Shown here: piece by piece, positions 2,670 to 64,000 of the stretch | Numbering within the stretch: position 1 is the first letter of the stretch | Layout: every line of letters starts with the position of its first letter | IMG/VR virus record: IMGVR_UViG_3300027708_000054 | Length of the DNA stretch: 64,000 bases | Reading direction: 5' to 3' (one strand) | Source: an uncultured virus (IMG/VR IMGVR_UViG_3300027708_000054) | Taxonomy: Duplodnaviria > Heunggongvirae > Uroviricota > Caudoviricetes | Program-made: the position numbers and the translations under genes | Notes under the pieces: generated by a model | What the model was told of the DNA's origin: nothing | Database searches by the model: none | What the model saw: only the letters and a program-made list of their open reading frames with translations

Positions 2670-4627
2670 TAGAATAAATTTAATTGGTTAGGGATAAACA
2701 CTGTATTAATTCTTTTTCCTTCAGTTTGAATCTTGGTGATTATTCTGTTAGCTTTCTCAATGTAATAATCATAGTTTACATTATCAGTGCTACTGCCTTT
2801 TGGTAGGAAATTACAAACTTTACACACCCATTCACCTGCTTCTATCTGACTGATAGCTGCAGCTCTGGTTTGACATTCAGGATTTTTCACCTTAAATATC
2901 TTATCACCTGTGTTAGACACATAATATCTAATGAGTTTATCATAAACTGTCACTTCACCTGTAGCTCTATTAGTTCCTTCATAATGGAAACTTCTAGTAG
3001 CTTTTTGTCTTAAACAAAAATCATATAGATTATCATGATTTCTAATAGTCTCAGCAACAGGAATACCACTAACAAAATAACGTTCAAGAGCAATGGGTAC
3101 AATCCTTGCACTCTTGTTCTTATGCAATTCAAAATCTGTAAGGAAATCACCTTTCTTTTTAATTTCTCCATTGGTCATAATAGCTAAATAATCATTCACT
3201 GTACTAAAGATAATCTTGGAATAGTCAGTTCTCTCTAACTCATATTGAGTGATGTCACACCACCATGCATTGATTTCATACATAAAAGGAATCTTGTCTT
3301 TCTTAATCTTGATAGTTACACCATCTGTATTTGCAGAGATCACCTGTATGCCACTGGTTTCATATTGTTCAATAAGCATCATTAAGCTAAGCTCACCAGT
3401 TATTGTGGTGAACATAGTTAATTGCCTATCATATATCCAATTTTGCATATCAGATGACTTACCATATACAGAGTTAACTGCAAGTTTAAGTGCTCCAACA
3501 ATTCCTTTAATCTTCTTATCACTCTTTGCAAGCGGTTTAAGCTCCAATCTCTTATCAAACATCTGTTTGTATCCTCTAAGGAATTCTTTTCCTAAATGAG
3601 CAGGAAACTTACCATTGTTGATAATAATAGCTGGATAGTAAGAACTAACATCCCAATCGATTATCTCATATTCTTCATCAGCTTCAAACACTTTAGGTTT
3701 GTTCTCTGTATGAAGACCACCTTTCATAAAAGAATATACATTTCCATAGAAATCTATATGCTCTTTGAAATCATCTTGAAGACCCAACTGCATTTTATTA
3801 ATCTTCTTTAGAAAATCTTTAAGTTGAGGGGTTTCAAATGTCACATATTTAGCAATGCAATTCTTTACATCTATACTCTTCCTGAAATATCCTTTCTTTG
3901 GAAGTTCTCTATAATCTATTCCTTTCTCAGAACAATAATACTTCTTAATCATCTCATCACCTATCTTACTATCAGAATAGTTAAGACAAGGAATACCAAA
4001 CTCTTCAAATATATCTTGTCTAAGCTCTATTTGATTGTTTCCTTTGTATAATGGATGATCTGTCTGGCCTAGTGTTATCTTATAGAATTCATATGTAGCA
4101 TCAACATCATTATAACAATAGTCAATTGTAAGAGCTATCTCTTCTTTGGTCATGTTAGTCTTGGTATGATGAATAGGCATTTCTTCTATGTTCTCTAGGT
4201 CCATCTCAAACTCTAGTCTTTTCAGAGAGACCATTCGATTTTTATTGTCGAAATGGCTTATCTTAAATAGATCTATCTGCTTAAGAGATAATTGTTCTTC
4301 TCTATATTCAGGGAATACATCATAGTTAGCATCATGTATAACATCTGCAGCTTTCTGTGCTATTCTAGAACATATTTCTAAGTTAGTTAGTTCATGCCAA
4401 TTGTCATAGTTTCTTAAGATCCATTCAACAACTTGACTATCAAAACGTAGATTATTATATCCTACCCAATAAGCATCAGGGTTTGCTTCTGTATATCTAA
4501 CAAAAGCATCTAATTGATTCTTCCATTTAGATACCTGAAAGCTTTTACCTGCTTTACCAGGCACCATACATACAACTAAGAATAGTTCTTGCATGGTTTC
4601 TATGTCATAAATTATTACATTTTTCAT
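2669..4627 (-). CDS. DNA polymerase family B (crAss-like)
   Basis: Exonuclease motifs YDIET, GYNNLRFD, YCYNDV; polymerase motifs DWDVSSYYP, KLAVNSVYG, ANTDG. ATG at 4627 preferred over TTG at 4633. Confidence 0.92.
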   Translation of the reverse strand: MKNVIIYDIETMQELFLVVCMVPGKAGKSFQVSKWKNQLDAFVRYTEANPDAYWVGYNNLRFDSQVVEWILRNYDNWHELTNLEICSRIAQKAADVIHDANYDVFPEYREEQLSLKQIDLFKISHFDNKNRMVSLKRLEFEMDLENIEEMPIHHTKTNMTKEEIALTIDYCYNDVDATYEFYKITLGQTDHPLYKGNNQIELRQDIFEEFGIPCLNYSDSKIGDEMIKKYYCSEKGIDYRELPKKGYFRKSIDVKNCIAKYVTFETPQLKDFLKKINKMQLGLQDDFKEHIDFYGNVYSFMKGGLHTENKPKVFEADEEYEIIDWDVSSYYPAIIINNGKFPAHLGKEFLRGYKQMFDKRLELKPLAKSDKKIKGIVGALKLAVNSVYGKSSDMQNWIYDRQLTMFTTITGELSLMMLIEQYETSGIQVISANTDGVTIKIKKDKIPFMYEINAWWCDITQYELERTDYSKIIFSTVNDYLAIMTNGEIKKKGDFLTDFELHKNKSARIVPIALERYFVSGIPVAETIRNHDNLYDFCLRQKATRSFHYEGTNRATGEVTVYDKLIRYYVSNTGDKIFKVKNPECQTRAAAISQIEAGEWVCKVCNFLPKGSSTDNVNYDYYIEKANRIITKIQTEGKRINTVFIPNQLNLF

Positions 4628-8746: not shown

Positions 8747-8893
8747 TTAATAACCCAACTTCTCTAGTTGGTCTATATTGGCTTCTACAATATACACACC
8801 ATGTGCTATTGTACATGCAAATGCAATACTCATTGCAAATGCTAATTGTCTGAACTGATAAAAATCAGTTGGTTTTAATGTGATTGTTTTCAT
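8747..8893 (-). CDS. small hypothetical protein (48 aa, not in track)
   Basis: MKTITLKPTDF...LEKLGY*, preceded by CCTTAATAA motif and A-rich leader. Confidence 0.55.
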   Translation of the reverse strand: MKTITLKPTDFYQFRQLAFAMSIAFACTIAHGVYIVEANIDQLEKLGY

Positions 8894-8920: not shown

Positions 8921-8954
8921 AAAATAAAAAAGCCTCTAGGTCAGTAGAGGCTTT
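8921..8954 (-). terminator. intrinsic terminator downstream of the tmRNA locus
   Basis: 10 bp stem AAAGCCTCTA/TAGAGGCTTT, 6 nt loop, followed by a T-run on the minus strand. Confidence 0.75.
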
Positions 8955-8958
8955 AAAT

Positions 8959-9085
8959 GATAGAACTTCACATACTTGGTCTCTGACCTATTCTATCTGG
9001 TAACACTGAGCTGTTACAGGGCAATTCATGACACTTAGCTTTGTCCAATTGCTTGTTGTTTTCCTAGTGCTAAGATCAAACAACA
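8959..9085 (-). ncRNA. candidate structured RNA 3' of tmRNA
   Basis: Four consecutive hairpins with complementary loops (CUUAGC/GCUAAG); no obvious ORF. Confidence 0.45.
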
Positions 9086-9089
9086 GATG

Positions 9090-9416
9090 TGGAGGTGGGG
9101 AGAATCGAACTCCCGTCCAAACTACTTTCGTTAATACAATTTATACAGCTTATAGGGTCAAGCTCAGCTCAACGTTTCCACCACTCTATTTAATCTAATA
9201 GAGAAATCTTTGAATGTTTAGGCTGCTACACCAAGAATAACATCCTCATTTAATAATGAGAACACTTTGTTCATGTTAGCTTCGATTTGTGCGTAATCTC
9301 CTAGAGACACAACACGAGAATTGTTTTTGCCATTTAATTAAATTCACCTTAGTTTACAGTTATCTCTCTGGCTGATTGTATTAATTATTGGTAACCTGTC
9401 AAAACCAGTCACCCCC
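9090..9416 (-). ncRNA. ssrA: tmRNA (transfer-messenger RNA)
   Basis: 5' GGGGGTGACTGGTTTTGAC; 3' GGGAG-TTCGATT-CTCCC-CACCTCC-A; 7 bp acceptor stem with G3:U wobble (Ala identity); helix 2 9375-9384 pairs with 9131-9140; internal tag ORF ending ...LGVAA*. Confidence 0.92.
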
Positions 9417-9424
9417 ATAAATAA

Positions 9425-9454
9425 ATATCCCTGCAAATATAATCTACAGGGATA
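9425..9454 (-). promoter_or_regulatory. putative tmRNA promoter (-7 box TATATTTG) inside an inverted repeat
   Basis: TATATTTG at 9434-9441 (minus); TATCCCTG/CAGGGATA inverted repeat around it. Confidence 0.5.
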
Positions 9455-9631
9455 AATAAAACAAACAAATTAACCAAATTTATTGTTCAATGTTTTGTCT
9501 AACATCAATTGTCTTCTCTGTTACAATCCCATATCTGAAATTGTATAACACTTCAACTATTAACCTCTTAGCTTTTATCTTTCTAAGAGGATTAGTTGAA
9601 CCCACTAATGTTCCTTTGTATATTCTACGTC

Positions 9632-9874
9632 TCATGGTATAATAATATGAAGAATAGCTGAAATAACAAGTAATACAGAAAGACTTATAATTATTATATG
9701 AAGCTTATTAATATGACGTTTATATATCTCCACTTCTTCTTCACATAGTTCTACAATCTTGCTTTTCATATCAAGTAGATTGTTAGCCATGTCTAATGCT
9801 CTTTGTTGATCTTCTACAAGCTCTGTAAGCTTAATGATAGTCTCATCAATTGGTTCTTGTTTTTGTTTTCTCAT
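9632..9874 (-). CDS. coiled-coil protein with C-terminal TM helix
   Basis: Heptad-like region followed by IIIISLSVLLVISAILHIII. Confidence 0.6.
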   Translation of the reverse strand: MRKQKQEPIDETIIKLTELVEDQQRALDMANNLLDMKSKIVELCEEEVEIYKRHINKLHIIIISLSVLLVISAILHIIIP

Positions 9875-52792: not shown

Positions 52793-55700
52793 ATGCCAGA
52801 TCCAACAAATCCAAATCTATACGGACAACCTTATACAAGAGGTCCTTTAAATCCTAATATTGGTTCAATTACTACCACTCCTTTAACTACAGGGTTTCCT
52901 GGATTAAGAACAGGAAAACCTCTATCTCAGGATGATAGAATTAATCTTCAGAATAGTCAATTAAATCCTAATGAAGTTAGACCAGGTAAAACCTATTTAG
53001 CTGATGTTGCAGGAGATTTAACTGGTAGATATGATACAGTTATATATGGAGCTAATAATGAAGATGCTTGGGGAGCACAACAATCTGTTTTATCAAAAGC
53101 TGTAAATGGTATATTAAAAGGTACTAATCTTGCAGCCACAACTGTTGTTGGTGGATTTGCTACAATGGGTGGTGCTATATCATCTTTGTTCACAGGAAGA
53201 CTTGCAGATATATGGGATAACCCTGTTATGCAAGGAATTGATAAATGGAATGAAAAGGTGGATCAAGAATACCTACCTAACTATTATACAGATCAAGAAA
53301 AGAATGCTGATTGGTATTCTTCTGATAACTGGTTTACAGCAAACTTCTTATTTGATAAAGCAATTAAAAACTCAGGATTTGCTGTAGGTGCTATTATTTC
53401 TGGTAACATGGCATCTGGTGCATTAGGTGCTGCAGGTACTGCTATTGGTGAAGGTGCTGCTACTTTAGAAGCATCTCAAACATTCAAAGCATTTTCTCCA
53501 TTATTAAAAAACACTGCAAGAGCTTTCTCTGCAGGTAAGAATGCTGAAGCTGCTGCATTGCTAGAAGGAGAGATTTCATCTATTGCTGATATTACACAAA
53601 GAACATCTAAGATGGCTGAGATTGCACAGCAAACAAATCAGTTCAATAAGATAAATGATATTGGTAAAAGATTTGGTATAGCTGCATACTCACAAGCTGG
53701 TGAATCTGCATTTGAAGGATTACAAACTTCTAATGAATTTAGAAAACAATTAATTGATCAATATACAAGAGGTAACTTTGGTGTAGCACCAAATGAAGAA
53801 GAGTTAAAGAAAATAGATCAAACAACAGCTAAAGTGGGGAAAGCATCTTTCCTTGCTAATATGGCTTTATTAACAGCTACAGAATATGTACAGCTTCCTA
53901 AGTTATTAGGAAGTACATATGCTTCTGAAAAACAAGCTGCAAATAGCTTAGCTGGAATGGCTGGTGATGTTGTATTAAAAGATGGTAAGTATGTTGCTAA
54001 AGAAGCAGCTACAACCAAATTTGGTAAACTATATAATAAAGTTAAAGGAGTAGGTAAGTATGTATTTGATCCTAAAGAGATGGGTCAAGAGATTGGTCAG
54101 TATGCTGTACAGATAGGAACACAAAACTATTATAATAAAGCATACCAAGGAAAGGATGCTAATTTATTAGTTGATGGTGTTTTATTTGGTTTATATGGAA
54201 CAGATCAATCTGGTAAAGGAATAGGAGCATTGAATTCTAAAGAAGGAATTGAAGGTGGTATTATTGGAGGTCTTACTGGAGGAATTATGCAAGCTAGAGG
54301 AAACTATATGATGGGTAAAGCTGTTAAGACTAACACTGCAACTTTCTTAAATGAACTTAATAATGCACCTACATACAAACAAGCTTTTCAATATAAATTA
54401 GATGCTGTAAATAGAGGTGTTGTGTTGCAAGAACAACAACAAGATGCTATTGAACAAGGTGATAAATTAGAAGCAAAAGATCTTAATGCTGATATGATGC
54501 ATAACTATCTAGCACCACGTATTAAGTATGGTAGAATGGATATGGTTATGGATGACATCAAAGAGATGAAAAAAGATTCTATGACACCTGAAGGAATGGC
54601 ATCTCTTAAACAAGCAGGTCTTGCTAATGTTAATGATACAGCTGAATCATTTGGTAACAGACTTTCATATTTTGAACAAACAGCTAAGAATACAGAACAA
54701 ATATATAAGTCTACAAATCTTAGATACTCTGGAGAGATATTAAAAGATGAAGAAGGTGAACCTATATTAAATGATAAAGGACAACAACAAAGAAAATACT
54801 CAGATACAGCAATTGAACAAATGGTTTATGCTGCTAGTAAAGTGGCAGACTATGATGTGCGTATTCCTCAAGTATCTGCTCTTCCTGTAAGTAATGGAAT
54901 TGATGTACAATCTGTTATTAATGAAGAGTTAACTAATCCAGAATCTACAGCTCTTGCTGATAAATTATCTGAGCTTGATGCTAATCCACAAATTAATACA
55001 GAAGAAATTAAACAAGATTTAACTGATTCTGTTGAGTTAGCAATGCGAAGAAAAGAATATCTTAAAGACTATAATGATATTATAAATAATCCAAGTAAGT
55101 ATATTCAACAAAGAGAAGAGTTTCAAACTCCTGAAGATACAGGAGAAACTAAAGAAAAAATCTCTATTAAGACTAAGAGAGGACCTAGAGATATTGAAAT
55201 AGGTACTGAATACTTTTTAGGAAAAGTGGTTGATCTTGATGAGAAAGGACATGAAGTATATCGTGCTCCTAGAATGGTTGTATTAGGTAAGAATGAAGAT
55301 GGTACAATCAAAGTGCAAGATTCTGATGGTGTTATCCATGATTTAAAAGAATCTACATTAGAGAGATACAATCTTGGAAAGGTTGATTCTACATTGAAAA
55401 ACAAAAAAGCCAAGTTCTATATGGAACATTGGAACATGGTGTATGAATTCAACTTTGGTAAAGATAAAGGAGGTAAACAAAAAGGTAGAATAGAATATGA
55501 TCCTGAAACAGATCAAATGCTCTTCAAGTATAAAAATAAAAAAGGAGAGATTAAAGAAATTGAAGTTACAGGAGATCAGTTTAAATTAACTGAAGCAAAT
55601 AAAAAGAAAGGTTTTACACAACCTATGATTACAGAAGTTGGAGAATTAACTGCAGTTCAACAAAAAGCAAAAGATGAATACACTGCTCAAGAAGACCCAC

Positions 55701-58700
55701 GTTTAAAATCTAAACTTGAAGCACGTCTTGCTATATTGAATGAACTTTTTGATGACTTATCTAAGTCACAAGATCAATCTAGAAAAGCTCTTGAACAAAA
55801 ACAAAAAGCTCTTGAGAATATAAACAAAGAACTTGAAGCATTAAAAAAACAAATAGAAGAAAATGCTAAAGTTGATAATAGATTTAAGAAAGGAATAAAA
55901 TTTAACACTGTAACTAAAAAAGCATTAGAAAATGCTATGAGGTTATCTAGAATGCAAGATCAATTAGAGAATGAGATTAAAACTCTTGAGTCTGATCTTG
56001 ATGATATAGATTTTAATATAAATTATATTTCTAATCTTGTTGATAATATAGATACCACTGCTACTAATTTTTATGATTTTAAAAATGACTTAGAAGATGA
56101 TCTTCTTAATTTAGAAGTGTTGAGAGAACAAACAGCTAAACAAATTAGTATTGTTTCTAAATTACTTAGTCAAGCACAGAAAGCTTTTGATTTTATTATA
56201 AATATGCTTTCAGATTTTATTCAAAAATTTGAAAGTAAGTATCCTGATGTTCCTAGATTAATGGGACAAGACTGGGTTGATTTCTTAAAAAATAATCCAA
56301 ATTTCTTAAAGTTAAAACCTAATTATAGAAGTGAGCTTGATGATTTAAATGACTTAATAGCGTTTCATGAAGATGGAGATATAACTCCTAGTGAAAAACG
56401 TATAGAAGATTTGAAAGATCATCTTGATATTATGCAAGAAGAATTTAAAAATCTAAGTAGAGAAATTGAAGCTAAGTCTCTTGTATTAGATAAGTTTTCT
56501 GCTATTGCTGAACAATATAAAAAGCAAGAAGCAGAAGCTAAACAAATGGAACGTAATGTAAAATTAGGGCAAGAACTTCTTGGTACATTAACAGGAAGTG
56601 TACAAAACTTTTTTGGTACAAAACCATATGAGCAAGAAGCTAAGAAAGATAAACTTGCTGTTGTAGGAGGTACTAAACCATTTACAGAAGATACAGAAGA
56701 GAGACCTCTTCCAGGATATGCTGCAAGAGTTAATCACTTTGGAGCTAGAGTGTCTAGTATGGATAATGCAGATGATTTAAGAGGAACTATTGTAACAGCT
56801 AATACAGAAGATCAAATACTTATTGGATTAACAGATAACTTCTTAAATGAAGATTCTAAGCCACTTAGTCCTGCAAGAAGAGAAGAGATTAGAAAAGAAG
56901 TTATATTCTTAGTTGTAACAGAGAATGGACAACTAGTAGATAAGAATGGAAAACTTATTCCTGGAAAATCTACTGAAGAAACACAAGAAGCTTATAACAA
57001 AAGACTTTATAATAATGCAATCTTTCAAGTGTTTCCTTCTGCTAGTTTAACTTCTAAAGGAAAAGATGGTAAAGTTGGTTCTATGTTTAGAGACACTGTT
57101 CCTCAATATGAAAGAGATTCTCTTAAAGAACAATACAAAGCATGGAGAGATGCACAACTAGCTAATACAAAATTAGATAAGAAAGGACAAAAGTTTAAGA
57201 CCTCTTTTGGTAATTTAGAATTTGTTAAGGTGTGGGATGATGCAAAGAAAGAATTTGTTAATGATACTGCTACAAGAACTTCTGCACAAGATGCTGGATT
57301 ATTAGATAAAGGTATTCTTAATAGAGATTCAGTTATCACTGTTGCTACAACTAATGATGATAAGTCTGAAGGAAATGTTTCTTTTAAATCTCCTAAAGGT
57401 AGAGTGTTCTTACGTATACCAGGACAAGGACTTGTTAGATTATTTAATAAGAAGTTTAGTAAAACAGAATCAGAAACTATTTTTGATGCTATGTTAAACT
57501 TAGCTAAAAATGCTTCTGAAAATGGATCATTATATGGTAATGATAAAGAAGATGTTAATAAGAATATTTTAAACTGGTTAAAGAGTGTTGTATATTGGGG
57601 TATTGCAAAAGATAAAGAAGGAAAGAGAAAACCTGCTGGATATAACAATATTTGGTTTGATAATGTATTAGTAGATGGTAAACCAGTTAAGAAGTTATTC
57701 ATGTCTGGTCTTCAAAAAGATTCTCAAAGTTATTTTGATTTTACTCCTCAAGGTTTAATTAATAGTAAACAAGATATTCTTGGATTGCTAGAGCAAATGT
57801 ATGCTAATACAGATGCTAAAAAAGTAAACATTGATAATTACAATGCTCCTTATGATGAGATATTAAGATTTGATAACTTAGGTAACCCTGTTACAAGAAC
57901 ATGGCCTAATTACCAAACATATTTATTATCATCAAACATTGTAGATAAAGATGGAAATATTACAGGTAAGAGAACAGGAAAAGAAATTCCTCTTACTACA
58001 CAAGTAAGACCTTTAACATCTGCAGAAGATACAAATAGAAAAGGTGTTTATTTTACATTAAATAGTTCAGTGGAATATAATGTACCTGCAGCACCTGTAG
58101 CAGCTCCTGCAATGGTTGTACCAGCACCTGTTGCCACTGCACAAGCCCCTGTAGCTACACCAGTTGTTAAACAGCAACAACCTACCACTCCTGGTAAATA
58201 TGATTTAAATGGAACAACAGAAAACAAAATTGTTATAGGTGGAAAACCAGATGGTAAAGGTGGCATCACTCCTATATATAATATAAACTTTACATTTGAT
58301 ATTAGTAAAATATCAGAGTTTTTAAAAGGACTTACAGATTTCACTAGTCTATATGAAAATGGTGGATTGACTAAAGAATTTTTAAATGTTCTTAAAGATA
58401 ATAAAGTAGTAACATATATTGATGTAGCAGATAATACTAATGGTATTTCAGCTTTTGTATCAGCAGTAGGTGAAAATATAGCAGAAGCAGTTTCTTTAAA
58501 TAAAATATTTGAAGCTGTTGCTCCACAAGTAGTGGCAGAAATGATTCCTGTTCAACCAGCAATAGCTGATGAAGCTCCTCAGGCTCCAGCTCCTACAGCT
58601 GCTACATTTACTCCAACAACACCTTATGGCACACCTACAGGACCAGAGTTAACAACTGCTTCTACCTCTGATATAGAAGCTAAGAAAGCTGAAGCTGATA

Positions 58701-61700
58701 AACTTACTCCTATTGAACAAAACTTTGCAGATGGTCAAGGTGGACGTAAAATGCAATCTAAGTTTGAAGGTAAATCTACTATGGATTTAATTCTTTCTGG
58801 AGATAGAACTAGAACTACTCGTGCTAATACTGATATACAAAGAATGTTAAAAGACTATGGTCTTACTAAAATTGAAGATTTAGTTGGTAAGGTTATTCGT
58901 ATGACAGATAAAAAAGGTAGAACTGTTTATACTGAAATTACAAAAGTTGCTCCTTTTACAAAAGAATACCAAGATGCTACTTGGCAAAAAGAAGGATGGG
59001 AAAAAGAAGTAACAGATAAATTAGTAGGACAATATCCTTATGCTATAGAATTTAAACTAGCTGCTTTAGAAGGTAGTGTAGAAGAAGAAGTAGTTACTCC
59101 TGAAGAAGTTACAACTGAACTTCCTACAGATTTTATTGATTTAGATGATTTAGATGATGATGATGTAGATACAAGTGCAATGAGAGTTGCTCAGCTTATT
59201 GATAAACTTAATCAATTTAAACCAGAGCAATGGAATAAAGTGGAAGAAGCAATGGCTAAAATGCTTCCTAACATTCCTTTCTATAGAACTAAAAATATAA
59301 TAAAAGGTACTAACGGTAGACAAGCATGGGGTATGCTTCATGATGCTGCTATATATGTATATGAAGGTGCAGAAGAAGGAACAGCTTACCATGAAGTGTT
59401 TGAAGCTGTGTGGAAAATGTTTGCTGGACCAGCTCAAAAACAAGCTATTATTAATGAGTTCAAAAGAAGAAAAGGAACATTTGTAGATAGAGAGTCTGGT
59501 AAAACTATTGAATATAAAAATGCTACAGCTTTTCAAATCAAAGAACAATTAGCTGAAGAGTTTAGAGAAGCAGTTCTTAAAGATAAACTAGGACTTCCAA
59601 AAGAATCAAAAACTTTAATAGGTAGATTGTTTTCTCAATTAATAGATTTCATCAAAGCTTTCTTTACAGGAGAAACTGCTCAACGTAATACCAAAGAATT
59701 ATTTAATAATATTGGTAATGGGTATTATGCACAATTTAATCCTTATCAATCACAATTATCATATGCTAAAAAAGGAATTATAGATATTGAAGATGCTCAA
59801 GCTACAGCTGATTCTGAAATGAGATCATTAACAATTCCTGAGATTGAAATGCATGATATAATTCAACACATGACATTCTTGACATTGACTAAACTATCTC
59901 TTAATAATGAGAGTGTATTCACTGTTAATGATTTAAATGAATCTGAATTGTATCCAGAATTAAAACTAGGTATATTAAAACTTCTTGCTAAACAAAACAA
60001 GTTAACAGCTAAATTAGTAGCAGAAGGAAAAACAACACAAGAGAAAGCTACAAGATTAATAAATAATAATAAATCTTTATCTATTAACATTCAAAATGAA
60101 TGGGCTCAAATCACTGCTAATCATAAAGCACATTTAAAAACATTTGATGTTCAATTTGATGAGAATGATGAAGACATATTAAACAGTGAAGAGAATACTG
60201 GTAGAGGAGAATTTGAAGCAGCTAACAAAATAGATTCATTTAGAAAAGCTAATGCTGCATTGAAACTTGTATTGAGTACTATTCCTATTACAGAAATGGT
60301 AGATGGAAGTATAAATTGGCAACCTTCTTCTATAGGAGGAGTTACACTTATCCCTGCAGAACAAATACACATTGATTTAAAAGCTAAGTTACATGGTTCT
60401 ATGGATATAGAAGATATGTTATTAGGACTTAAAACAATGGCAGAAAACAATCCTAACTACAATGCTTTATTTAGAAGACTAACAGGTAACTCAGCTGATG
60501 TAGGATTAGATATAAACACTATACAAGAACATGATTTTCAATTAGCTTCAGCATTATGGAAATCTATAAGTATGCAAAACCCTGATGTAATCACTGTATT
60601 CTTACAAGAGGATGGTGATGTAGTTGTTAGTAATTCTACGCTTAGTAGTGCAGCTAAATCAGCTAAAAAAGAAATGATTAATAACATTATATCTACATTA
60701 AAGAATGATCAATCTATCTATTTTAGATATGTTTCTTCTACAGGTAAATATTATGCTAAAGATAATTTAAAAGCATTATCATTTGATGGAAGTTTATTAA
60801 AACCATATACTGATTTTCTTAAACAACTTGGTATAGAATTTAATGAAAGAGATCTTGTAGATTTGAAACCAGACCAACTTGCAGCATTTAAAAAATCAGT
60901 AAGTGATATTAAAAATGAACTTTCTAAGGTGGGTGATAGTAAGATTGTTAAAGATGAAAACAATAATGATGTAGAAGAAGATGGTGGTATAAAATCTATT
61001 AGTACTAAAACATTAAACATTGATGGAGATTTACTTAGACTTGCTATTGTAAAAGCTGTTATTGATAATACAGAATTTCAATCTACATATTTCAATATTA
61101 ATGGAGAACGTACACAATCATTCATTGGAACTAATCTTATCAGTGCTTTACATAACACTCTATCTAAATTAAGAAATATAGAAGAGTTACAAAACGATCC
61201 TAGATATAAAAGGTTTGCTTACTTAGCTGCAGGTAATGATGTATTTGTACAAGGAAGTCAACTATTAAGAAAGATGTTTGATATAGTTGGACCAGATAGT
61301 ACAGGAAAACGTAGAGCTGGTACTGAAGATATTGGAAAACCTGTTATTGTAGATGGTATAGTAGATGAACAAACTGGTAAGAAAAAAGAAGCTTCTAAAG
61401 TTACATATAGACAAAGACTTATTCAAGAATTAAATCTTAATATATCTGGTATATTTATGAATCTTGTTCCTGGCGATGCTTCTCTTGAACATGCTATTAG
61501 AATGTTTAATCAAAAAGATCCATTTGTTTCAGAAAGTGATTTATCTAACAAGAACTATTTAGATATATTCAAAGATTATTTTGTGTCTGAAGTGGAACTT
61601 GTTAAAGAGAATAGAAATACAGCAAAAAATAATGGTAAAGATCTTCGTTTCTTCAAAGCTATTCTAGGAGAAGAGATGCATAAAAAGATTGCAAATAAAA

Positions 61701-64000
61701 TTAATGATGAAACTGATGCTGAGCAATTGTATAAAGATAATGCACAAGCTATAAACTCTGCAGTGGAAGCATTTATTAAACAAGATACAGCAGATACAGA
61801 AGAATTATTAAAAGCATATGATATTATCACTACAGAAGATAGTATAATTAATATAGATAAGGTGGCATTGTTTAATAAAGAAGAAACTATTACACAAGAA
61901 GGATTAAACTCAAAACTAAAAGCATTAACTATTAACTATATGATAGCTAATATAGAAATGCATAAAGTTTTATATTCAGATCCTTATCAATATAATGATG
62001 AGCTTAAACGTATTAAAAACTTTACATCTCCTGGACAACCATTAGTTCCTAGTTCACAAGCAATAGATGCTAGACTTAATGAGCTTTATAACAAAGGATT
62101 TAAACCTGGTGATATTGGTTATACAGATATGACACAAGATCATTTTAGATCTATAGCTTTACAAGATGTATTAAGTACAAATGAAAACTTAGGATATGAT
62201 GTTCCTTATGAAGAAACAGATGGTGGTGGATTAATTACACTTAAAGGATATAGAGTGTTTGCTTTAAGAGCTGGTACATGGACAGCTAATAATGAAAAAC
62301 AATATAGATTTGATATAGCATTTGAAGAATTAGTTAAATCAGGTGCTAATGAAACTACTATTAAAAAATTCCTAAAAGGTAATCCAGGAATCAAAGATAC
62401 ATACACACCTATTAAACCTATTGTTAGAGGAAGTAAAGATAATGGTAGAACTTACAATGATATTGTTCTTCACAAATTTGCACTTGCTCCATTATCATTT
62501 AGAATACTTTATGAGTTAAATCCTGATTCTAATGCAATCAAGTTATATAACAAGATGCAAAAAGAGAATATAGATTATGCTGTATTTGCTTCAGGAAGTA
62601 AAGTGGGAACAGAAAAGATATCTCCTTTATATAATGCAAAAGGTGAGTTTGATAATACACCATTTGAAGATGCTAGAGAAAAGAAAGGTAACTTACCTGA
62701 TAATGTTAAAAGAGCTGTAAGTAATATACCATTTACTATTGTAGCTGTACAATCAGAGGTCCCTTCTAAAGACACTCCAACTGTTACACAAGGATCTCAG
62801 ATTACTAAACTTGCTACAATGGATTATTTACAATCTGGTGTACCTATTGATTTTATGCCAGAGCTTCCTACATTTGAAGAAAGATTTTCTGAATGGTTAG
62901 GTCTTGATGATAAGTCAAGTTATAATGAAGGAAAGAATATTTATAATGAAATTGTAAACAATCAAAAACTATTAGAAGCTAGAATTGAAGATGGTATACA
63001 ATCTCTATATAAGAAACTTGGTATTGTAGAAACTACAAATGAAGAAGGAGATAAAAAATGGGTAATAGAAGATAGAGATAAGTTAGTTAAAACTCTTACT
63101 GAAGAAATTGGTAAAAGAGAAATCAATTATAATATTACAGATGCTTTTGCAGGATTTGTAAAAGGTGATGTTATATTAGAAGCTACTCCTGTATACCAAC
63201 AAGTTAGAAACATTCTTTATTCTATAGCTGATAAAACTATTGTACGTCCTAAAATATCTGGAGGTATGAAGGTGCAAGTATCTTCTGCATTATTAGAATC
63301 TGTAAGAGCAGTAGGAAAACCTGTATTAGATGATAAAGGTAAACAAGTATTTAATAAAGATGGTAGTCCTAAATTTACATATGAATCCACTGAACTAGAA
63401 TTCTATAAGAATGAAGATGGTAAGAGAGTATGTGAGATAATGATTGGTAGATGGTTTAAATCAAATAAAACAGATAAAGAGTTAATGGATTATTTTAATA
63501 ATGATCCAGAGGGTAAGAAAGAATTTGCAGCTCTTATGGGTGTAGCATTTCGTATTCCTACACAGAAACAAAACTCTATTGATGTATTCAAGATAAAACA
63601 ATTTCTTCCTAAAGACTTTGGAGATTCAGTAATTATTCCTTCAGCTCTTGTTAGAAAAGCAGGATCGGATTTTGATATTGATAAATTATCAATCTATTTG
63701 AAAAATGTATTTACAGATTCTCAAGGTAAAATAAGAGTGGTTCCATTTTTAGGAATTGGTCAAGAAGCTAAAGATAATTTCTACAAATTATTTGATGAAG
63801 GTAAGTTATTATCTAAATCACAAATAAAAGAATTAAATGATGAATTAGAATTATATAAGTCTGGTAAACTAGAAGGTAAACTTATAGAAGCTATTTTTGG
63901 TGATGCAGGTTTATTTACTGAAGAAGATGTATTAACAGACTTTATTGAAACATTAAAAGAAAATGGTATTAGAGAATCTGTTGTAGATAAATTTTACAAA
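52793..64000 (+). CDS. giant virion-packaged RNA polymerase (partial, >3736 aa, runs off window)
   Basis: ATG 52793 is in frame with FRIPTQ (~63548) and GSDFDIDK (DFDID at 63668-63682), the double-psi-barrel catalytic motif of crAss-like/phi14:2 gp66 RNAPs; no long + ORF is listed here, consistent with no stop before the window end. Confidence 0.9.
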   Translation, partial: MPDPTNPNLYGQPYTRGPLNPNIGSITTTPLTTGFPGLRTGKPLSQDDRINLQNSQLNPNEVRPGKTYLADVAGDLTGRYDTVIYGANNEDAWGAQQSVLSKAVNGILKGTNLAATTVVGGFATMGGAISSLFTGRLADIWDNPVMQGIDKWNEKVDQEYLPNYYTDQEKNADWYSSDNWFTANFLFDKAIKNSGFAVGAIISGNMASGALGAAGTAIGEGAATLEASQTFKAFSPLLKNTARAFSAGKNAEAAALLEGEISSIADITQRTSKMAEIAQQTNQFNKINDIGKRFGIAAYSQAGESAFEGLQTSNEFRKQLIDQYTRGNFGVAPNEEELKKIDQTTAKVGKASFLANMALLTATEYVQLPKLLGSTYASEKQAANSLAGMAGDVVLKDGKYVAKEAATTKFGKLYNKVKGVGKYVFDPKEMGQEIGQYAVQIGTQNYYNKAYQGKDANLLVDGVLFGLYGTDQSGKGIGALNSKEGIEGGIIGGLTGGIMQARGNYMMGKAVKTNTATFLNELNNAPTYKQAFQYKLDAVNRGVVLQEQQQDAIEQGDKLEAKDLNADMMHNYLAPRIKYGRMDMVMDDIKEMKKDSMTPEGMASLKQAGLANVNDTAESFGNRLSYFEQTAKNTEQIYKSTNLRYSGEILKDEEGEPILNDKGQQQRKYSDTAIEQMVYAASKVADYDVRIPQVSALPVSNGIDVQSVINEELTNPESTALADKLSELDANPQINTEEIKQDLTDSVELAMRRKEYLKDYNDIINNPSKYIQQREEFQTPEDTGETKEKISIKTKRGPRDIEIGTEYFLGKVVDLDEKGHEVYRAPRMVVLGKNEDGTIKVQDSDGVIHDLKESTLERYNLGKVDSTLKNKKAKFYMEHWNMVYEFNFGKDKGGKQKGRIEYDPETDQMLFKYKNKKGEIKEIEVTGDQFKLTEANKKKGFTQPMITEVGELTAVQQKAKDEYTAQEDPRLKSKLEARLAILNELFDDLSKSQDQSRKALEQKQKALENINKELEALKKQIEENAKVDNRFKKGIKFNTVTKKALENAMRLSRMQDQLENEIKTLESDLDDIDFNINYISNLVDNIDTTATNFYDFKNDLEDDLLNLEVLREQTAKQISIVSKLLSQAQKAFDFIINMLSDFIQKFESKYPDVPRLMGQDWVDFLKNNPNFLKLKPNYRSELDDLNDLIAFHEDGDITPSEKRIEDLKDHLDIMQEEFKNLSREIEAKSLVLDKFSAIAEQYKKQEAEAKQMERNVKLGQELLGTLTGSVQNFFGTKPYEQEAKKDKLAVVGGTKPFTEDTEERPLPGYAARVNHFGARVSSMDNADDLRGTIVTANTEDQILIGLTDNFLNEDSKPLSPARREEIRKEVIFLVVTENGQLVDKNGKLIPGKSTEETQEAYNKRLYNNAIFQVFPSASLTSKGKDGKVGSMFRDTVPQYERDSLKEQYKAWRDAQLANTKLDKKGQKFKTSFGNLEFVKVWDDAKKEFVNDTATRTSAQDAGLLDKGILNRDSVITVATTNDDKSEGNVSFKSPKGRVFLRIPGQGLVRLFNKKFSKTESETIFDAMLNLAKNASENGSLYGNDKEDVNKNILNWLKSVVYWGIAKDKEGKRKPAGYNNIWFDNVLVDGKPVKKLFMSGLQKDSQSYFDFTPQGLINSKQDILGLLEQMYANTDAKKVNIDNYNAPYDEILRFDNLGNPVTRTWPNYQTYLLSSNIVDKDGNITGKRTGKEIPLTTQVRPLTSAEDTNRKGVYFTLNSSVEYNVPAAPVAAPAMVVPAPVATAQAPVATPVVKQQQPTTPGKYDLNGTTENKIVIGGKPDGKGGITPIYNINFTFDISKISEFLKGLTDFTSLYENGGLTKEFLNVLKDNKVVTYIDVADNTNGISAFVSAVGENIAEAVSLNKIFEAVAPQVVAEMIPVQPAIADEAPQAPAPTAATFTPTTPYGTPTGPELTTASTSDIEAKKAEADKLTPIEQNFADGQGGRKMQSKFEGKSTMDLILSGDRTRTTRANTDIQRMLKDYGLTKIEDLVGKVIRMTDKKGRTVYTEITKVAPFTKEYQDATWQKEGWEKEVTDKLVGQYPYAIEFKLAALEGSVEEEVVTPEEVTTELPTDFIDLDDLDDDDVDTSAMRVAQLIDKLNQFKPEQWNKVEEAMAKMLPNIPFYRTKNIIKGTNGRQAWGMLHDAAIYVYEGAEEGTAYHEVFEAVWKMFAGPAQKQAIINEFKRRKGTFVDRESGKTIEYKNATAFQIKEQLAEEFREAVLKDKLGLPKESKTLIGRLFSQLIDFIKAFFTGETAQRNTKELFNNIGNGYYAQFNPYQSQLSYAKKGIIDIEDAQATADSEMRSLTIPEIEMHDIIQHMTFLTLTKLSLNNESVFTVNDLNESELYPELKLGILKLLAKQNKLTAKLVAEGKTTQEKATRLINNNKSLSINIQNEWAQITANHKAHLKTFDVQFDENDEDILNSEENTGRGEFEAANKIDSFRKANAALKLVLSTIPITEMVDGSINWQPSSIGGVTLIPAEQIHIDLKAKLHGSMDIEDMLLGLKTMAENNPNYNALFRRLTGNSADVGLDINTIQEHDFQLASALWKSISMQNPDVITVFLQEDGDVVVSNSTLSSAAKSAKKEMINNIISTLKNDQSIYFRYVSSTGKYYAKDNLKALSFDGSLLKPYTDFLKQLGIEFNERDLVDLKPDQLAAFKKSVSDIKNELSKVGDSKIVKDENNNDVEEDGGIKSISTKTLNIDGDLLRLAIVKAVIDNTEFQSTYFNINGERTQSFIGTNLISALHNTLSKLRNIEELQNDPRYKRFAYLAAGNDVFVQGSQLLRKMFDIVGPDSTGKRRAGTEDIGKPVIVDGIVDEQTGKKKEASKVTYRQRLIQELNLNISGIFMNLVPGDASLEHAIRMFNQKDPFVSESDLSNKNYLDIFKDYFVSEVELVKENRNTAKNNGKDLRFFKAILGEEMHKKIANKINDETDAEQLYKDNAQAINSAVEAFIKQDTADTEELLKAYDIITTEDSIINIDKVALFNKEETITQEGLNSKLKALTINYMIANIEMHKVLYSDPYQYNDELKRIKNFTSPGQPLVPSSQAIDARLNELYNKGFKPGDIGYTDMTQDHFRSIALQDVLSTNENLGYDVPYEETDGGGLITLKGYRVFALRAGTWTANNEKQYRFDIAFEELVKSGANETTIKKFLKGNPGIKDTYTPIKPIVRGSKDNGRTYNDIVLHKFALAPLSFRILYELNPDSNAIKLYNKMQKENIDYAVFASGSKVGTEKISPLYNAKGEFDNTPFEDAREKKGNLPDNVKRAVSNIPFTIVAVQSEVPSKDTPTVTQGSQITKLATMDYLQSGVPIDFMPELPTFEERFSEWLGLDDKSSYNEGKNIYNEIVNNQKLLEARIEDGIQSLYKKLGIVETTNEEGDKKWVIEDRDKLVKTLTEEIGKREINYNITDAFAGFVKGDVILEATPVYQQVRNILYSIADKTIVRPKISGGMKVQVSSALLESVRAVGKPVLDDKGKQVFNKDGSPKFTYESTELEFYKNEDGKRVCEIMIGRWFKSNKTDKELMDYFNNDPEGKKEFAALMGVAFRIPTQKQNSIDVFKIKQFLPKDFGDSVIIPSALVRKAGSDFDIDKLSIYLKNVFTDSQGKIRVVPFLGIGQEAKDNFYKLFDEGKLLSKSQIKELNDELELYKSGKLEGKLIEAIFGDAGLFTEEDVLTDFIETLKENGIRESVVDKFYK

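Follow-up and report, generated by a model that had tools for sequence, protein, structure and literature searches.

The minus strand of the window, the whole 64,000-nucleotide stretch of an uncultured virus (IMG/VR IMGVR_UViG_3300027708_000054) analyzed here, carries a true one-piece tmRNA gene, which the Rfam model RF00023 matches at full length from 9416 to 9087 with 93.5 bits (E value, 4e-35; Rfam gathering threshold, 47) and whose parts are listed in Table 1. A two-piece (permuted) gene is ruled out by this full match, with RF04321 reaching only 15 bits. An earlier note on this DNA, made from the letters alone, had described a complete alanine-type tRNA-like domain with a G3:U pair, a TTCGATT T-loop and no encoded CCA, and had suggested Infernal and ARAGORN as checks; ARAGORN gave no call on the window gene at default or relaxed thresholds, and the described features were all seen, with covariation. 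The 7-bp acceptor stem, the G3:U pair (9414:9093), the T arm and the discriminator A at 9090 are present, the last followed by CAT, so that CCA is not encoded. Among 46 aligned family members, the acceptor and T stems were paired in 100% of cells with compensatory changes, including two-sided changes in 4 of the 5 T-stem pairs, and two-sided changes were also found in helix 2, which joins the tRNA-like and mRNA-like domains. With all named helices pooled, 86.6% were paired compared to 71.4% in shuffles and 40 to 47% when slid (46 of 97 full-length members). Canonical tmRNAs have four pseudoknots and a tag of about 10 residues, and the window copy has neither an H-type pk1, nor pk2 to pk4 after the tag, nor a tag of about that length. 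Since pseudoknots vary among accepted tmRNAs, as stated in passages of PMC3985003, the lack of pk1 to pk4 still leaves the gene in RF00023.

The window belongs to a crAss-related aquatic phage, as indicated by PHROGs matches for terminase, portal and major head protein and by CrAss tail-ring Pfam families, and its terminase matches those of Crassvirales, Cellulophaga, Flavobacterium and one Leptolyngbya-labelled phage at 25 to 40%. The cultured phages that carry the same tmRNA family suggest a host within the Bacteroidota. The multihairpin module behind the tmRNA, probably cotranscribed with it, is 84 to 98% alike over its length in loci L017, L086 and L279, with two-sided changes in 5 of 41 pairs (4 sequences) and a possible loop-loop pairing. 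Two small ORFs flanking the tmRNA, at 8747-8893 (-, 48 aa) and 9480-9635 (-, 51 aa), have no family match and recur near the tmRNA in 22 and 18 of 86 loci, respectively; no conserved phage partner protein was found next to the tmRNA, the commonest neighbor family occurring in 22 of 86 loci. Across 5 phage records, the ClpP family gave one subthreshold match only and bS21 none. An ORF of at least 3,736 aa at 52793-64000 (+) runs off the end of the window and has no PHROG or Pfam match, and the tmRNA region is absent from the nearest record (G001, 54% complete).

Table 1. Features of the tmRNA locus, in window coordinates
Feature	Position	Strand	Basis
Intrinsic-terminator-like hairpin	8929..8954	-	Predicted
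Multihairpin RNA module behind tmRNA, no Rfam family	8958..9088	-	Folding and relatives
tmRNA gene, G1 to discriminator A, 327 nt	9090..9416	-	RF00023, 93.5 bits; mapped helices
T arm (9114-9098), acceptor stem 3' strand (9097-9091), discriminator A	9090..9114	-	100% paired
Helix 2 3' strands: 2d (9149-9146), 2b (9140-9131), 2a (9125-9118)	9118..9149	-	Helix mapping, family alignment
Minimal 3' module: hairpin (9203-9184), UGGUGG (9183-9178), hairpin (9173-9157)	9157..9203	-	In place of pk2-pk4
Terminal VAA (putative degron) and stop	9218..9229	-	77 AA, 5 VA, 1 GV among 83 tags
Tag reading frame, 37 codons and stop	9218..9331	-	Translation; frame conserved in family
14-codon core QxxANMxxVxx[LI][LI]N, predicted helix	9248..9289	-	81/83 tags match full motif
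Frame-setting UAAAU, equivalent of E. coli U85-A86...C89	9332..9336	-	Host and family context
Conserved AGGUGA, 12 nt upstream of resume codon	9344..9349	-	95/97 phage vs 1/85 host tmRNAs
Hairpin at pk1 position, 3-bp stem, conserved purine-rich loop	9357..9370	-	Compensatory stem variants in relatives
Helix 2 5' strands: 2a (9398-9391), 2b (9384-9375), 2d (9374-9371)	9371..9398	-	79-98% of cells paired, covarying
Acceptor stem 5' strand, including G3 of the G3:U alanine determinant	9410..9416	-	G-U in 46/46 and 97/97 full-length members
13-bp hairpin (leader) just upstream of tmRNA 5' end	9426..9454	-	Similar in 19 related loci

Tag frame, phage family and host tmRNAs

The frame from 9331 to 9218 encodes GKNNSRVVSLGDYAQIEANMNKVFSLLNEDVILGVAA, a 37-residue translation identical to that in the earlier note. 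Its start is fixed by homology, since the resume context, UAAnY followed by G (124 of 125 family loci), is common to hosts and phages and agrees with the role of U85/A86 in tmRNA frame setting described in passages of PMC2481249; most Flavobacteriales hosts resume at GGN or GAC after UAA(A/U/C)(U/C). Comparative fixing was preferred to the tag starts given by ARAGORN because the program missed the window gene and began the tags of relatives late, shortening them to 11 aa in phi14:2, 22 in phi40:1 and Calle, and 24 in FpV4. Alternative starts at an AUG two bases upstream, at the GUG in AGGUGA or at an internal Met were rejected because their frame or triplet is unconserved, and alignment with related phages and Flavobacteria, as the earlier note had advised, gave no later start that would leave a tag of about 10 aa. 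Translation of the long tag is, in our view, very likely.

By BLAST, this RNA was also present in Flavobacterium phage FpV4 and its relatives and in Cellulophaga phages phi14:2, phi38:1, phi40:1 and Calle, the tags of FpV4, phi14:2, phi40:1 and Calle being 35, 38, 30 and 30 aa long. The RNA motif upstream of the tag occurs at a minimum of 120 IMG/VR loci, and its single match in 185,579 prokaryotic genomes lies on a short, apparently viral contig (4,939 bp, agreeing in length and source number with viral record L119), on which ground a host origin of the long tag was rejected; a tag profile run against 301 Bacteroidota genomes returned the same viral-looking contig and two weak matches (E values, 0.0125 and 0.0153). 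Judged by these sequences, the long-tag tmRNA family is restricted to phages. Of 90 loci retrieved with a tag-based pattern, 55 have the upstream motif in its exact form, and the others listed are tmRNAs with variant hairpins; L230 and L276 were dropped as chance matches of this pattern, and L111, which was not parseable, was left out of the parsed set. Terminase similarity and length served to choose a further 23 records; a tmRNA is present in 12 of these (9 of the 11 near-complete ones), in each case with a tag of 34 to 45 aa that contains the core; in 2 of the 11, no tmRNA was detected by an RF00023 search, which undercounts relatives (record G417 contains locus L103 yet was unmatched). The 45-aa tag type falls in two clades of the terminase tree, which is only a hint of exchange. 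The GenBank tmRNA feature of phage Calle_1 (L004:2001-2360) lies about 52 nt off the position found here.

Chromosomal host counterparts differ from this family. RF00023 matched in 93 of 101 Flavobacteriales genomes, once on a viral contig, and of 90 host-type tmRNAs examined among the 93 matches ARAGORN called 86, with tags of 6 to 10 aa and none longer (9 aa in 75 of them, with the sequence GENNYALAA in 36; four calls are plainly wrong). The window tag is about four times as long, and hosts therefore do not share the long-tag character, a point on which the earlier note's reading depended. Flavobacteriales SsrA shares with the phage RNA a tRNA-like domain, a helix 2, the UAAnY-G context, a tag that starts with G or D and an AA end, but has a tag of at most 10 aa, a full pk1 and a 206- to 232-nt 3' structure, where the window tmRNA has 37 aa, a pk1 hairpin with AGGUGA and a 68-nt two-hairpin module with UGGUGG.

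According to passages in the respective sources, phage tmRNAs are known from mycobacteriophages and Bacillus phage G (PMC4131195), a survey counted 402 phages with tmRNA and includes phi14:2 and phi38:1 in its Table S1 (PMC9004378), and tmRNAs have been reported in Cellulophaga phage Calle (PMC8776804) and Maribacter phage Panino (PMC11590407); in PMC6235969, tmRNA appears only in a reference. The annotated tmRNAs of Calle, phi40:1/phi38:1, phi14:2 and FpV4 belong to the same long-tag family. The passages on annotated phage tmRNAs count or list genes and leave the tag undescribed, and we found no published account of the long-tag family in a search that had subscription papers and the tmRNA Website outside its scope. 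The Panino tmRNA (L005:1475-1683) scores as the permuted type (RF04321, 62 bits).

Selection on the tag peptide

Among the matches listed, 83 distinct tags from 125 loci whose retrieval made no use of the tag sequence are 24 to 49 aa long (median, 35), contain QxxANM in 82 cases and the full QxxANMxxVxx[LI][LIMV] in 81, and end in AA (77), VA (5) or GV (1), in keeping with the earlier remark that the terminal AA is retained. The sole exception to the core, at L039:1344-1490 (-), is a family member whose 49-aa tag ends in AA. Changes in tag length are all in frame and confined to two linkers, with 2 to 14 residues before the core Q and 15 to 31, never fewer than 15, from the core Met to the tag end. 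For the 73 distinct cores of the tag-independent set, pN/pS (counted pairwise between relatives at least 70% identical, with no tree correction) was 0.31 in frame with stops in 0 of 73, compared to 0.88 and 1.22 in the other two frames, with stops in 72 and 73 of 73; four core residues (Q, A, N and M) are invariant with free third positions. By these substitution patterns, the tag core is under protein-level selection, and the tag very probably binds something.

AlphaFold predicted a helix over tag residues 10 to 36, with a pLDDT of about 90 in the core. The amphipathic helix of the earlier note thus stands as a helix, whereas its amphipathicity is modest and not significant (hydrophobic moment, 1.29 compared to 0.83 +/- 0.31 in shuffles, 94 of 1,000 of which were as high). 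No homologue of the tag was found in PDB, Pfam or the ESM Atlas, three single-member Pfam matches (E values, 0.009 to 0.08) being taken as noise. A profile search of 1.84 billion representative proteins returned 90 matches of 27 to 94 aa, 87 of which end in AA or VA; all 90 read as ORFs called over such tags, and among these representatives the motif was found in no ordinary protein. The window's own proteins contain it nowhere besides the tag. Mimicry of the ClpX zinc-domain helix by the core was rejected at an hhalign probability of 0.1%.

Architecture of the pk1 region and 3' module

The hairpin at the pk1 position has a 3- to 4-bp stem in the family and lacks a conserved second stem, second-stem scores there being mostly 6 to 8 in phages compared to 10 to 15 in hosts. 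On comparative grounds, pk1 is lost as a pseudoknot and reduced to a covarying hairpin, whereas hosts have a true pk1. AGGUGA stands 11 to 12 nt from the resume codon in 198 of 210 parsed loci (among the matches listed), and a Shine-Dalgarno role for it is speculation. Loci L275, L280 and L301 have an extra hairpin between AGGUGA and the resume codon, and L275 is without the pk1-position hairpin.

Beyond the tag, UGGUGG follows the stop in 83 of 97 full-length phage members compared to 0 of 85 host tmRNAs; pairing is 73 to 83% in the first hairpin of the 3' module and 57 to 81% in the second, in a poorly aligned region. The gap that separates the tag stop from the 3' strand of helix 2d, put at about 70 nt in the earlier note, measures 68 nt compared to 206 to 232 nt in 68 parsed host tmRNAs, and no pseudoknot above chance was found in these 68 nt, 187 of 200 shuffles scoring at least as well as its best candidate. 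Where the 3' region of a family member is longer, a pseudoknot is a frequent addition (score of at least 12 in 15 of 54, compared to 6 of 270 shuffles), and the window copy is the minimal form of the family.

The earlier note had proposed that the long tag displaced most of the pseudoknots, and this did not hold up within the family: the 3' region, at a median of 110 nt, is shorter than the 212 nt of hosts, but its length showed no correlation with that of the tag (rho, -0.07; p, 0.49; n = 96; L298 left out), and tags of equal length occur with 3' regions anywhere from 65 to 277 nt. Displacement is therefore not a trade-off still under way. An ancient displacement of pseudoknots by the tag may have occurred. 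In E. coli tmRNA, pk2 to pk4 are dispensable in vitro and pk1 is replaceable by a hairpin, according to passages in PMC3985003, PMC4236655 and PMC13692277.

Expression and possible functions

RNA-library contigs, which carry no strand, level, ends or DNA control, cover the tmRNA in 4 of 4 runs examined of 24 listed. Run X1 holds two exact pieces of the tmRNA, and run X3 a relative's 328-nt contig over 9115-9405 with adapter at both ends, at a depth of 63 compared to 8 on the next-gene contig; a lack of contigs elsewhere is not taken as silence. In phi14:2, the tmRNA lies at 4031-4502 (+), between g004 and g006. Passages of a bioRxiv preprint (10.1101/2020.03.07.982082) describe two rightward, abundant and lasting noncoding RNAs of undetermined function in phi14:2, the RNA of this region being plentiful already at the first sampling time and remaining so; both reported junctions of the "lncRNA" fall in the g004-g006 interval that holds the tmRNA, and since g005 is absent from the record, the tmRNA may lie in either junction. 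The tmRNA offers an identity for part of this unexplained RNA.

SmpB was found in 0 of 5 and 0 of 23 phage records and in none of 48 window proteins scanned, so host SmpB would be needed, as the earlier note had concluded. A ClpX zinc domain is present in 40 of 41 Flavobacteriales genomes, and SspB in 0 of 41. We propose, with our confidence evenly divided, a host-SmpB-dependent rescue RNA that adds a two-part degron of binding helix, linker and terminal AA. The phage tmRNA would be charged with alanine, use host SmpB and EF-Tu and enter stalled host ribosomes during infection, where translation would resume at GGC (9331) and add A plus 37 residues. The tag would open with a host-like GxN, followed in turn by a linker that varies freely, the fixed helical binding motif, a second, acidic linker and an end of a hydrophobic residue and AA. 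A host ClpXP-type protease would read this AA, and docking of the core helix on a quality-control protein conserved among hosts, either a protease domain or an adaptor, would give the tag its own tether where SspB was not found. Charging, tagging in vivo and the binding partner are points that we infer.

Given that the long tag is translated, we lean slightly toward this role as a proteolysis tether. A fixed core, a minimal linker and a terminal AA would suit a tethered degron in hosts with ClpX and without SspB, and a tether fits the observation that both linkers vary freely while the distance from Met to tag end is never below 15 residues. The reading is weakened because a protease is just one of the specific interfaces that the polar, invariant Q and N would suit, and because no partner was found, the motif being unmatched in databases, dissimilar to the ClpX zinc domain and without a conserved neighbor. 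Tethered delivery through an internal binding site and a terminal degron is known from the E. coli ssrA-SspB-ClpXP system, and the phage tag resembles it in having a putative internal site besides its terminal degron; unlike in E. coli, SspB is absent from the 41 Flavobacteriales genomes, and no SspB-like phage protein was seen. To our knowledge, little is known about tag recognition without SspB in Bacteroidota. The Mycoplasma ssrA tag, described in passages of PMC8403727 and PMC3985003 as 27 aa long, Lon adapted and proposed to contact the protease at several sites, is like the phage tag in being long and gives a precedent for a long tag with several contact sites; it is chromosomal, ends in AFA and serves cells without ClpXP, whereas the phage tag ends in AA and its presumed hosts have ClpX, as judged by the 40 of 41 Flavobacteriales genomes with the domain.

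An unlikely but serious alternative is that the core of the trans-translated tag binds a nonprotease host target (a defense protein, chaperone or translation factor), with stalled ribosomes acting as a stress-triggered source of inhibitor or the AA end dragging the bound protein to ClpXP. Invariance of Q, A, N and M across phages of Cellulophaga and Flavobacterium suggests one conserved surface, and the confinement of the motif to phages and the early, lasting abundance of the phi14:2 region in the preprint passages point the same way, but the conserved AA end should shorten an inhibitor's life and no look-alike motif was found in host proteins. Somewhat more doubtfully, ribosome rescue could have been turned into a delivery device in Bacteroidota phages, a stalled ribosome yielding a protein with a phage-written helix and degron that blocks a conserved host factor or tows it to ClpXP only when translation is attacked.

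Core-to-stop distances of 15 to 31 residues, and a conserved AA and stop showing that ribosomes reach the end, make it improbable that the core acts in the ribosome exit tunnel, pausing or pacing translation while the RNA holds ribosomes or SmpB, even though its invariant small or polar residues are followed by acidic ones (E and D account for 195 of the linker residues counted) and the core may resemble MifM-type arrest peptides. We give slightly less credence to the absence of trans-translation, with the RNA soaking up SmpB or EF-Tu or the frame being an ordinary small gene. Though an SD-like AGGUGA lies 9 to 10 nt ahead of an AUG-like triplet, gene callers give the frame as a small ORF and a TLD-only phage tmRNA may inhibit tmRNA (a passage in PMC4131195), conservation begins at the host-type resume codon and the AUG frame gives unconserved peptides of 3 to 23 aa. 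Among the matches listed, 54 of 213 loci have ACG, UUG or CUG in place of AUG, and the GUG of AGGUGA is out of frame at the commonest spacing, 12 nt (126 of 210 loci); Flavobacterium ribosomes, moreover, ignore SD sequences according to PMC7797042. Least credible is a long frame that is mainly an RNA spacer by which the ring, its pseudoknots lost, would still encircle the 30S head, with a loosely constrained peptide, since the shortened 3' regions and a ring length of 192 to 445 nt compared to 284 to 309 nt in hosts are set against four invariant residues with free third positions and no inverse correlation between tag and 3' length.

Phage tmRNAs and the long tags of Mycoplasma were known already; new here is a tmRNA that is apparently restricted to phages, poor in pseudoknots and equipped with a long tag under selection at the peptide level. 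It bears on the question of what a lytic phage gains from a tmRNA of its own beside that of the host. The earlier note's idea that ribosomes stalled by host antiphage tRNA or mRNA nucleases might be rescued speaks to this question too, and tagged products might, as it also suggested, be redirected. The phage tmRNA is not a host copy, having a different, strongly selected peptide and an architecture rebuilt without clear pseudoknots, and these differences indicate a phage-specific job; the question is testable, since cultured members exist (phi14:2, phi38:1/phi40:1 and Calle on Cellulophaga). The tag possibly represents a new degron or adaptor site in Bacteroidota, and the window copy provides a natural minimal tmRNA for structural work. 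The hairpin-UGGUGG module also occurs in the short-tag tmRNA of crAss phage cr128_1 (L224:1198-1290), which has a group I intron at the T arm, and stands free in Lactococcus phage AM1 (L225:1198-1232), flanked by a tRNA and a tmRNA.
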